In this document: positions 1,666 to 1,966 of the stretch, piece after piece
How positions within the stretch are numbered: position 1 is the stretch's first letter
Layout: each line of letters opens with the position of its first letter
Virus record (IMG/VR): IMGVR_UViG_2700989171_000008
DNA length: 4,588 nt
Source of the DNA: a virus
Taxonomy: Duplodnaviria; Heunggongvirae; Uroviricota; Caudoviricetes
Direction: 5' to 3' (one strand)
The notes under the pieces: generated by a model
What the model was told of the DNA's origin: nothing
Seen by the model: the letters and a program-made list of their open reading frames with translations, nothing else
Databases searched by the model: none
Position numbers and translations under genes: made by a program

Positions 1666-1722
1666 GGCCCTTTAGCTCAGTGGTGAGAGCGAGCGACTCA
1701 TAATCGCCAGGTCGCTGGTTCA
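1666..1722 (+). tRNA. tRNA with anticodon CAU (ileX/ileZ-like tRNA-Ile2 or tRNA-Met); 3' portion lost in N-gap
   Basis: Acceptor 5' arm GGCCCTT, D-arm GCTC/AGTGGTGA/GAGC, anticodon loop CTCATAA (CAU at 1699-1701), T-stem and TTCA visible up to the gap. Resembles E. coli ileX as recalled. The T-loop end, 3' acceptor strand and CCA are missing. Confidence 0.72.
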
Positions 1723-1732
1723 NNNNNNNNNN
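1723..1732. other. Assembly gap (N10) of unknown true length
   Basis: Ten N. The first tRNA needs about 19 more nt to complete but the next tRNA's acceptor stem starts 1 nt after the N-run, so more than 10 bp are missing. Confidence 0.8.
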
Positions 1733-1733
1733 A

Positions 1734-1810
1734 CCGCCACTAGCTCATCAGGAAAGAGCGTCAACCCTTTAAGTTGAGTGTGCGAGGTTCGAGTCCCCGG
1801 TGGCGGTCCA
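1734..1810 (+). tRNA. tRNA, nominal anticodon UUU (Lys) but noncanonical; identity uncertain
   Basis: Cloverleaf folds: acceptor CCGCCAC/GTGGCGG (C1:G72), D-arm GCTC...GAGC, anticodon stem TCAAC/GTTGA with loop CCTTTAA, T-loop TTCGAGT, discriminator T plus CCA at 1808-1810. Anomalies: C at position 33 where U is nearly invariant, and an A-C mismatch in the T-stem. The true 5' end may lie in the gap. Confidence 0.5.
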
Positions 1811-1812
1811 GT

Positions 1813-1888
1813 GCCGACTTGGCTCAGTAGGTAGAGCAACTGACTTGTAATCAGTAGGTCACCAGTTCGATTCCGGTAGTCGGCACCA
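1813..1888 (+). tRNA. tRNA-Thr (anticodon UGU)
   Basis: Acceptor GCCGACT/AGTCGGC, D-arm GCTC/AGTAGGTA/GAGC, anticodon stem ACTGA/TCAGT with loop CTTGTAA (UGU at 1846-1848), T-loop TTCGATT, discriminator A plus CCA at 1886-1888; one A-C mismatch in the T-stem. Confidence 0.78.
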
Positions 1889-1891
1889 TAT

Positions 1892-1966
1892 GCGGGCATC
1901 GTATAATGGCTATTACCTCAGCCTTCCAAGCTGATGATGCGGGTTCGATTCCCGCTGCCCGCTCCA
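1892..1966 (+). tRNA. tRNA-Gly (anticodon UCC), glyT-like
   Basis: Acceptor GCGGGCA/TGCCCGC, D-loop with TATAATGG, anticodon stem TCAGC/GCTGA with loop CTTCCAA (UCC at 1925-1927), T-loop TTCGATT, CCA at 1964-1966. Appears identical or near-identical to E. coli glyT as recalled. Confidence 0.88.

Follow-up and report, generated by a model that had tools for sequence, protein, structure and literature searches.

Four transfer RNA genes between Q and the holin gene

We analysed a viral DNA stretch of 4,588 nucleotides (nt) (Caudoviricetes; IMG/VR record IMGVR_UViG_2700989171_000008), called the window here at its full length, and focused on a cassette of transfer RNA (tRNA) genes at positions 1,666 to 1,966. 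The interval from the gene of the late-gene antiterminator Q to the holin gene contains four head-to-tail tRNA genes, designated tRNA1 to tRNA4, with the anticodons CAU, UUU, UGU and UCC and with spacers of only 1–3 nt. The cluster is real, common, ordinary in kind and already annotated, and it contains one testable oddity, tRNA2, in which a UUU anticodon follows C33. The features of the cassette are as follows.

1628–1656, + strand: the cassette's own sigma-70 promoter, TTGCAA, 17 nt, TATTAT (promoter scan, 9/12 consensus matches)
1666–1722, + strand: tRNA1, the 5' 57 nt of a tRNA-Ile2 with anticodon CAU, ileZ/ileX type (gap-closed alignment; tRNA-Ile by annotation)
1734–1810, + strand: tRNA2, argN lineage, with UUU, C33, C1:G72, U73 and A51·C63 (ARAGORN; Rfam; tRNA-Lys by annotation; argN homology)
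1813–1888, + strand: tRNA3, tRNA-Thr(UGU), a copy of host thrU (75/76 identical to K-12 thrU)
1892–1966, + strand: tRNA4, tRNA-Gly(UCC), a copy of host glyT (75/75 identical to K-12 glyT)
1973–2019, then a T8 run at 2040–2047, + strand: long hairpin, a weak candidate for the point at which transcription from the tRNA promoter stops (−23 kcal/mol, z = −2.0)

ARAGORN detected three tRNAs in the window (1734–1810, UUU; 1813–1888, UGU; 1892–1966, UCC). It missed tRNA1 because the run of 10 Ns at 1723–1732 stands for 19 nt that run from its T-loop up to the CCA end, as seen by aligning the window to a phage genome and a pair of complete chromosomes. In each of three gap-closed loci, ARAGORN detected all four genes, which the Prokaryotic Genome Annotation Pipeline (PGAP) labels tRNA-Ile, tRNA-Lys, tRNA-Thr and tRNA-Gly. 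With the Rfam tRNA model (RF00005, gathering score 29 bits), gap-closed tRNA1 scored 72.5 bits, tRNA2 44.4 bits (E = 2.5e-7), tRNA3 72.5 bits and tRNA4 64.9 bits. An initial annotation made from the letters of the window had read four tRNAs with these anticodons between Q and the holin gene. The cluster is indeed seen in the window and is completed by the three gap-closed homologues, and ARAGORN and the gap-closed alignment agree on the anticodons. Gap closure left tRNA2 unchanged, i.e., no canonical loop appeared and C33 stayed. C33, the C1:G72 pair and a T-stem mismatch, all reported for this gene before, were correct, the mismatch being A51·C63, and the window allele was scored by ARAGORN, the Rfam tRNA model and PGAP.

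tRNA2 has an argN-type body and a lysine anticodon

The second tRNA of Shiga toxin (Stx) phages is annotated in one record as argN, a tRNA-Arg. We compared tRNA2 with argN and found 80–84% identity. Both contain C1:G72, U73 and A51·C63, and argN scored 43.0 bits in Rfam against 44.4 bits for tRNA2, indicating that the odd body of tRNA2 is a family trait rather than a defect specific to the window. The two genes differ at 12 positions, of which 8 fall among the 22 positions of the anticodon arm and variable loop and 4 among the 55 elsewhere (Fisher p = 0.003). Pairing in the anticodon stem is kept through the compensatory change of G30:C40 to A30:U40 and the change of U27:G43 to U27:A43, and the loop is altered from CUUCGAA to CCUUUAA. 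Judged by this alignment, tRNA2 is an argN-lineage body with an anticodon arm remodelled from UCG (Arg) to UUU (Lys).

We then examined variation in tRNA2. The T-arm and acceptor of tRNA2 served as the query for a scan of IMG/VR, which gave at least 120 loci; the 120 matches listed, together with five loci from other sources, made up a set of 125 loci. The anticodon loop of tRNA2 reads C32-C33-U34-U35-U36-A37-A38, and the same loop including C33 was found in 118 of 118 UUU-type copies among the matches listed (125 loci) and in 38 metagenome copies. Positions 33–38 were invariant in 156 copies, counting the matches listed and the metagenome copies together. Position 32 was C, U or A only among the matches listed and the metagenome copies; these are the states of bacterial t6A (N6-threonylcarbamoyladenosine) tRNAs (PMC13276492). 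The strict determinant of t6A37, U36-A37-A38 (PMC13276492), is kept in tRNA2. U33, in turn, is near-universal and supports the U-turn for ribosome binding (PMC13276492); tRNA2 departs from it, in that the window and every one of the 156 related UUU-type copies (matches listed and metagenome copies together) carry C33.

Apart from the anticodon loop, tRNA2 has the general architecture of a tRNA. It scores above the Rfam gathering threshold, forms a cloverleaf with stems of 7/4/5/5 bp and one A·C mismatch, and keeps U8, A14, G18G19, T54-Psi55-C56, A58 and an encoded 3' CCA. Further oddities are the discriminator base U73 and the U15/G48 combination. The gene has the anticodon U34-U35-U36 of E. 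coli-type tRNA-Lys; however, it is not lysT-like, as it carries U73 and C1:G72 and its similarity to lysT is confined to universal tRNA positions. Host thrU (389–464 of the extracted host locus) and its phage copy contain a mismatched A52·C62 pair within their T stem, indicating that a T-stem A·C mismatch is not abnormal in itself.

Minimum free energy (MFE) folds of single tRNAs were uninformative, as the host-identical thrU was also folded without a cloverleaf; the energy of the cloverleaf was evaluated instead. Cloverleaf and MFE values were −22.3 and −25.0 kcal/mol for tRNA2, −26.4 and −28.6 kcal/mol for lysT, and −21.4 and −24.1 kcal/mol for thrU. According to these computed energies, the window allele of tRNA2 is intact, with a cloverleaf as stable as those of host tRNAs. 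A sparse hand tally of stem changes within the UUU-type alleles gave roughly six that preserve pairing and four that break it. Shifted anticodon registers (UUA, or a loop of 8–9 nt) were also tried by hand and rejected, as no shifted stem pairs. The initial annotation had suggested that the second tRNA may be diverged, unusual or nonfunctional: the diverged and odd features stood, whereas the window allele proved intact with a host-like cloverleaf, and the damage was found in other common alleles.

tRNA1, tRNA3 and tRNA4 match the codon usage of the phage

tRNA1 is identical to K-12 ileX at 68 of 76 positions, with a compensatory change of C6:G67 to U6:A67. The first tRNA of Stx2 phage 1717, the gene known as ileZ, is all but the same as tRNA1. 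By these alignments, tRNA1 is an Ile2 tRNA (AUA-reading, lysidine-type) and an orthologue of ileZ. The ileZ of phage 1717 (1554–1628 of its extracted locus) is one G short in the 3' acceptor strand, with AAGGCCACCA instead of AAGGGCCACCA, and the GenBank record of this phage leaves the tRNA genes unannotated. The single difference of tRNA3 from thrU, A9G, is polymorphic (6 of 63 distinct related sequences). In the tRNA-Gly of related loci, C6U occurred in 7 and G66A in 6 of the 63 distinct sequences; together they would constitute a compensatory change of C6:G66 to U6:A66, and the captured phage copies would therefore evolve under tRNA structure constraint.

Phage PhiR47_1 has the same four tRNAs, and codon usage in its annotated genes was compared with that in 42 K-12 genes, expressed per 1,000 codons. 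ATA was used at 7.6 in the phage and 2.4 in K-12 (3.2-fold), ACA at 12.8 and 5.4 (2.4-fold), and GGA at 12.8 and 6.0 (2.1-fold). AAA was used at 37.2 and 34.0 (1.1-fold), and its share of Lys codons was 0.71 in the phage and 0.74 in K-12. Codon supply thus fits tRNA1, tRNA3 and tRNA4 and does not fit tRNA2, because ATA, ACA and GGA are enriched and AAA is not. Moreover, the host already has many identical tRNA-Lys(UUU) genes, at least five of them in a single locus. We propose that tRNA1, tRNA3 and tRNA4, reading AUA, ACA and GGA, would top up minor host tRNAs for the A-ending codons favoured by the phage.

The cassette carries a conserved promoter

Among the 63 distinct related sequences, the distance of 17 nt between the TTGnnn and TATTAT hexamers is kept although six unrelated sequences fill the spacer and the upstream flank is mosaic. 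Because hexamers and spacing are conserved across unrelated spacers, a functional promoter appears to travel with the cassette, and the good promoter of its own ascribed to the cluster at the outset is thereby upheld. For a promoter predicted in this way, conserved hexamers and spacing are better evidence than the consensus match alone. The same promoter lies ahead of the Stx-phage cluster (phage 1717). As the promoter is conserved, expression of the cassette in the lysogen is plausible. The tRNA genes are located downstream of tR' and are therefore read from the late promoter PR' only after antitermination by Q. The GC-rich stretch CCTGCGCCC between the tRNA promoter and the tRNA 5' end resembles the discriminator of stringently controlled stable-RNA promoters.

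Downstream of tRNA-Gly, the simple terminator scan called no terminator, and folding gave weak candidates only. The hairpin at 1973–2019, directly after tRNA-Gly, has 13 bp with an inner GGGA...UCCC stem, and a perfect 14-nt inverted repeat, TTATGAATGATCGC, lies at 2026–2039 and 2085–2098. This hairpin and the TTATGAATGATCGC repeat may contribute to termination of the tRNA transcript.

Conservation of the cassette within mosaic flanks

At least 80% of window positions 1468–2040 was present in 320 of 5,426 complete E. coli genomes, and tRNA2 was present at 90% identity or more in 798 of the 5,426. Among 185,579 species, each represented by one genome, matches occurred in E. coli and Shigella flexneri only. 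Within the 125 loci, and thus among the matches listed, 96 carried CAU-UUU-UGU-UCC, 13 carried CAU-UUU-UCU(Arg) and 7 carried the Stx-phage set CAU-UCG-UCU. Nucleotide diversity was 0.005 for tRNA1, 0.028 for tRNA2, 0.009 for tRNA3 and 0.012 for tRNA4, compared with 0.15–0.29 in the flanks; the cassette thus forms an island of conservation, and the sequence on either side is mosaic. No paper discussing the cassette was found in the searchable literature.

The hybrid set CAU-UUU-UCU(Arg) occurs in the Stx2a phage Stx2_14040 / PPompW (2278–2441 and 2525–3983 of its extracted locus). In the PPompW hybrid, tRNA2 has lost 1 nt of its D stem, and just downstream lies an inserted ISEc20 element; this allele is left unannotated by PGAP in many genomes of E. 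coli strains that produce Shiga toxin. In phage PhiR47_1, the same four-tRNA cassette accompanies a PanA/PanT toxin-antitoxin pair at the left end (308–1352 of its extracted locus).

tRNA2 differs from host tRNA-Lys at the determinants of nuclease cleavage

The UUU anticodon of tRNA2 is that of the host tRNA cut by PrrC and by AriB of the PARIS system (PMC2610378, PMC12409363). Phage tRNAs can stand in for host tRNAs that defence nucleases destroy. Phage tRNA-Lys variants rescue infection from PARIS and PrrC170 (PMC12409363, PMC11555353, PMC12445682); with PrrC170, tRNA-Lys of phages from several genera rescues, and E. coli tRNA-Lys gives low rescue only (PMC11555353). PrrC cuts tRNA-Lys 3' of U33, and RloC cuts there too (PMC2610378). 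The AriB cut site is U36AAUC|A41; cleavage is lost with U39A and impaired with A41C and with U16C (PMC12409363). The tRNA-Lys of phage T5, with U36AAACC41 and C16, is resistant to AriB (PMC12409363). We compared tRNA2 with host tRNA-Lys at these positions. Positions 36–41 read UAAGUU in tRNA2 versus UAAUCA in the host, position 16 is C versus U, and C33 is located at the PrrC junction. In this comparison of primary sequences, none of the published determinants of host tRNA-Lys is the same in tRNA2.

The anticodon stem of tRNA2 also lacks the paired CNG motif used by P2-OLD (PMC12445682), whereas the thrU copy of the cassette keeps UAAUCA and the CNG stem. The thrU copy was considered as a means of escape from P2-OLD and was ruled out by its host anticodon stem and by the little or no protection that over-expressed host tRNA-ThrU gives against P2-OLD (PMC12445682).

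Possible functions of tRNA2

A nuclease-insensitive spare tRNA-Lys is the leading single function for tRNA2, although we hold this reading only tentatively; expression, charging by lysyl-tRNA synthetase (LysRS), decoding and cleavage resistance are all inferred from sequence. The cassette is a compact mobile unit of E. coli/Shigella lambdoid prophages, sited between the tR' terminator and the lysis genes, and could be transcribed from its own constitutive-type promoter as well as from PR' after Q antitermination. Its second gene is of the phage argN lineage, with an anticodon arm rebuilt from UCG to UUU and a stem that stayed fully paired. The resulting spare tRNA2 would then escape the host nucleases that stop phage infection by cutting host tRNA-Lys(UUU), through C33, 5' of the PrrC/RloC cut, and through G39-U40-U41 and C16, given that AriB needs U39, C40|A41 and U16.

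Several observations weigh against this proposal. A73 is an identity element of E. coli LysRS, and tRNA2 has U73 instead of the A73 of E. coli tRNA-Lys. Decoding by tRNA2 may be crippled because C33 replaces U33. Its model score is 44 bits, compared with 65–73 bits for its neighbours, and its diversity is 3–6 times theirs. Approximately one quarter of the copies among the matches listed carry either the 1-nt D-stem deletion (PPompW, beside the insertion sequence (IS)) or a U8C/C4U/C11U haplotype; the D-stem-deletion and U8C alleles gave no Rfam hit at E ≤ 0.01 and are unannotated by PGAP. As such damaged alleles are common, they suggest that several lineages can dispense with tRNA2. Nor does the full cassette amount to an anti-nuclease kit, because its thrU copy keeps the host anticodon stem and over-expressed host tRNA-ThrU protects little or not at all. 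A convergent use of C33 shared with T5 was also ruled out: the T5 tRNA-Lys keeps U33, so C33 is not a shared escape solution. Papers with expression, charging or cleavage data for tRNA2 were not found in the searchable literature.

The strongest rival, which we consider a genuine possibility and place a close second, is that tRNA2 is a non-functional or barely functional relic of the argN lineage that has lost its Arg identity. It would persist wedged between selected tRNA genes and be carried along upon cassette recombination, while the other three tRNAs do the work by serving the rare codons. C33, U73, U15/G48, the low model score, the raised diversity and the common alleles that escape Rfam and PGAP would all be expected of a relic. 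In addition, singleton alleles in viral contigs and metagenomes break stem pairs, one case being a large anticodon-arm deletion, and the AAA codons to be served are not in excess. However, decay does not readily account for differences from argN that are concentrated in the anticodon arm (p = 0.003) and leave its 5-bp stem fully Watson–Crick via a compensatory pair, nor for the invariance of positions 33–38 in the 156 copies with position 32 held within t6A-tolerated states. The major tRNA2 allele is identical in at least 89 loci with varied flanks, its cloverleaf stability is comparable to that of host tRNAs, and the damaged alleles are partly derived from one clonal, IS-disrupted prophage lineage, PPompW.

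Plain dosage, in which all four tRNAs including tRNA2 serve late-gene translation with no link to defence, is improbable. The two- to three-fold enrichment of ATA, ACA and GGA in the phage and the presence of the same Ile2/Thr(UGU)/Gly(UCC) set in T5, and likewise in T4, are consistent with it. For tRNA2, however, dosage is opposed by the nearly equal use of AAA (37.2 vs 34.0 per 1,000; Lys share 0.71 vs 0.74) and by the five or more identical tRNA-Lys(UUU) genes of the host, to which a non-canonical tRNA adds little.

We regard a non-decoding role as similarly unlikely; tRNA2 would then act as a decoy for nucleases or modification enzymes, or as a scaffold for the processing of its neighbours by RNase P/RNase E. 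C33 and U73 would be irrelevant to such roles, and the spacers of only 1–3 nt would suit them. Over-expressed viral tRNAs possibly compete with host tRNAs for AriB (PMC12409363); however, the recognition determinants of AriB are absent from tRNA2 and not preserved, which speaks against an AriB decoy, and cassettes with a damaged tRNA2 D stem persist beside apparently intact neighbours. Finally, a draft-assembly artefact (a chimeric N-gap join or sequencing errors), as might be suspected of a scaffold with three 10-N joins, two of them with duplicated and slightly divergent flanks, has next to no chance of explaining the oddities and was ruled out by the gap-closed loci, by 100% identity in complete genomes and by exact copies of the 77-nt tRNA2 in at least 89 other loci.

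The broader form of the spare tRNA-Lys proposal is that lambdoid temperate phages of E. coli carry a dedicated escape tRNA-Lys, i.e., a working C33 elongator on an argN scaffold that is expressed in the lysogen and in which the PrrC/RloC and AriB contexts are altered; this full combination we consider doubtful. If it is true, some 15% of E. coli strains would have partial protection in advance against tRNA-Lys nucleases, whether their own or incoming, anti-nuclease tRNAs would reach beyond large virulent phages to common prophages, and tRNA2 would represent a natural case of a bacterial elongator tRNA that functions with C33. Otherwise, tRNA2 would be a clear tRNA pseudogene that genome pipelines label tRNA-Lys. 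Lambdoid phages have long been known to carry tRNA genes after Q, and hundreds of RefSeq genomes already have annotations for the exact tRNA set. The cassette is modular: the promoter, ileZ and an argN-type gene are followed by interchangeable 3' genes, including unaltered captures of thrU and glyT. The argN scaffold occurs with either a UCG or a UUU anticodon, and the two versions differ mainly in the anticodon arm; codon usage does not explain the Lys version, which departs from host tRNA-Lys at the sites of action of the two best-studied E. coli tRNA-Lys nucleases.

Genomic context and assembly of the window

The remaining features identify the window as the late-control region of a lambdoid prophage, and they are listed below.

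80–421: DUF968 protein, C-terminal part
422–787: RusA
778–1467, + strand: late-gene antiterminator Q, upstream boundary of the interval (Pfam PF06323, E = 3.6e-91; phrog_304)
1456–1484, + strand: PR'-like late promoter at the end of Q, TTGCAA, 17 nt, TATATT (promoter scan, 9/12 matches)
1535–1560, + strand: tR'-like intrinsic terminator, GC hairpin and U run (−16.8 kcal/mol, z = −3.5)
2477–2692, + strand: P21-type holin S, downstream boundary of the interval (Pfam PF04971, E = 1.4e-35)
2905–3534, + strand: 209-amino-acid open reading frame between holin and endolysin (phrog_1085, E = 1e-73; families of unknown function)
3600–4133: phage lysozyme

Rz/Rz1 follow the lysozyme gene. The PR'-like promoter, located at the end of Q, agrees with the known architecture of lambdoid late regions. 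None of 200 shuffled sequences was as stable as the tR'-like hairpin, which the simple terminator scan reported on the minus strand only. Weak Rfam matches to the Salmonella prophage small RNAs isrK/isrJ were found at 1487–1560 (+ strand), over the short PR' leader and the tR' hairpin, the place occupied by the lambda 6S-type terminated late transcript. The 209-amino-acid reading frame (2905–3534) had no Pfam match, and its slot is occupied by YdfR or DUF1327 genes in other genomes, which indicates a variable cargo position.

The window was assembled as a scaffold, with 10-N joins at 1723–1732, 2248–2257 and 2766–2775. The second is flanked by a near-duplicate (2041–2247 vs 2259–2465, 98% identity), and so is the third (2567–2692 vs 2776–2901, 87%), where the second copy is a partial, divergent holin 3' end. 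Complete genomes contain a single copy of each of these two duplicated regions. The distance from tRNA-Gly to the holin gene was 510 nt in the window versus 291 nt in SMS-3-5, and the best whole-window matches spanned 3,830 bp for a query of 4,530 bp. The scaffold joins have probably fused alleles that belong to several similar prophages; genes follow one another in the window as they do in complete chromosomes.

Comparison with known systems

The T5 tRNA-Lys(UUU), which provides escape from PARIS, resembles tRNA2 in having the anticodon of the host target, substitutions at AriB positions 39 and 41, and C16. It differs in having U33, G1:C72 and A73, and the two genes share no sequence homology. 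T5 is also a virulent phage with about 24 tRNAs, and the function of its tRNA-Lys is proven, whereas that of tRNA2 is inferred.

The tRNA sets of T4-type phages resemble the cassette in tight packing and in Ile(CAU), Thr(UGU) and Gly(UCC) for A-ending codons. T4 carries Ile2, Thr(UGU) and Gly(UCC), and T5 carries these three as well. T4-type sets, however, consist of diverged phage tRNAs, whereas two genes of the window are unaltered host copies, and the window cassette belongs to a temperate phage and would be under its own promoter and Q control. These two copies, tRNA3 and tRNA4, correspond to thrU and glyT of the host thrU-tyrU-glyT-thrT operon in the same order. In contrast to the operon, the cassette has a 3-nt spacer in place of tyrU and its intervening sequence (209 nt), lacks thrT and tufB, and has unrelated flanks.

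The closest system is the ileZ-argN-argO cluster of Stx phages such as 933W and 1717, from which the initial annotation had set the present cassette apart. This distinction held for the third gene, as the window has copies of thrU and glyT where argO (UCU) stands in the Stx phages. It did not hold for the first two genes, since tRNA1 is the ileZ orthologue and tRNA2 the argN homologue. The two clusters share the site after Q, PR' and tR', the promoter, ileZ as first gene and homologous second genes. They differ in the second gene, where argN combines UCG with U33 and the window combines UUU with C33 in a rebuilt anticodon stem, and in that no stx operon lies downstream of the window cassette. 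An intermediate CAU-UUU-UCU form is found in PPompW prophages. On the basis of this shared organization and homology, the window cassette is a variant of the Stx-phage cluster.

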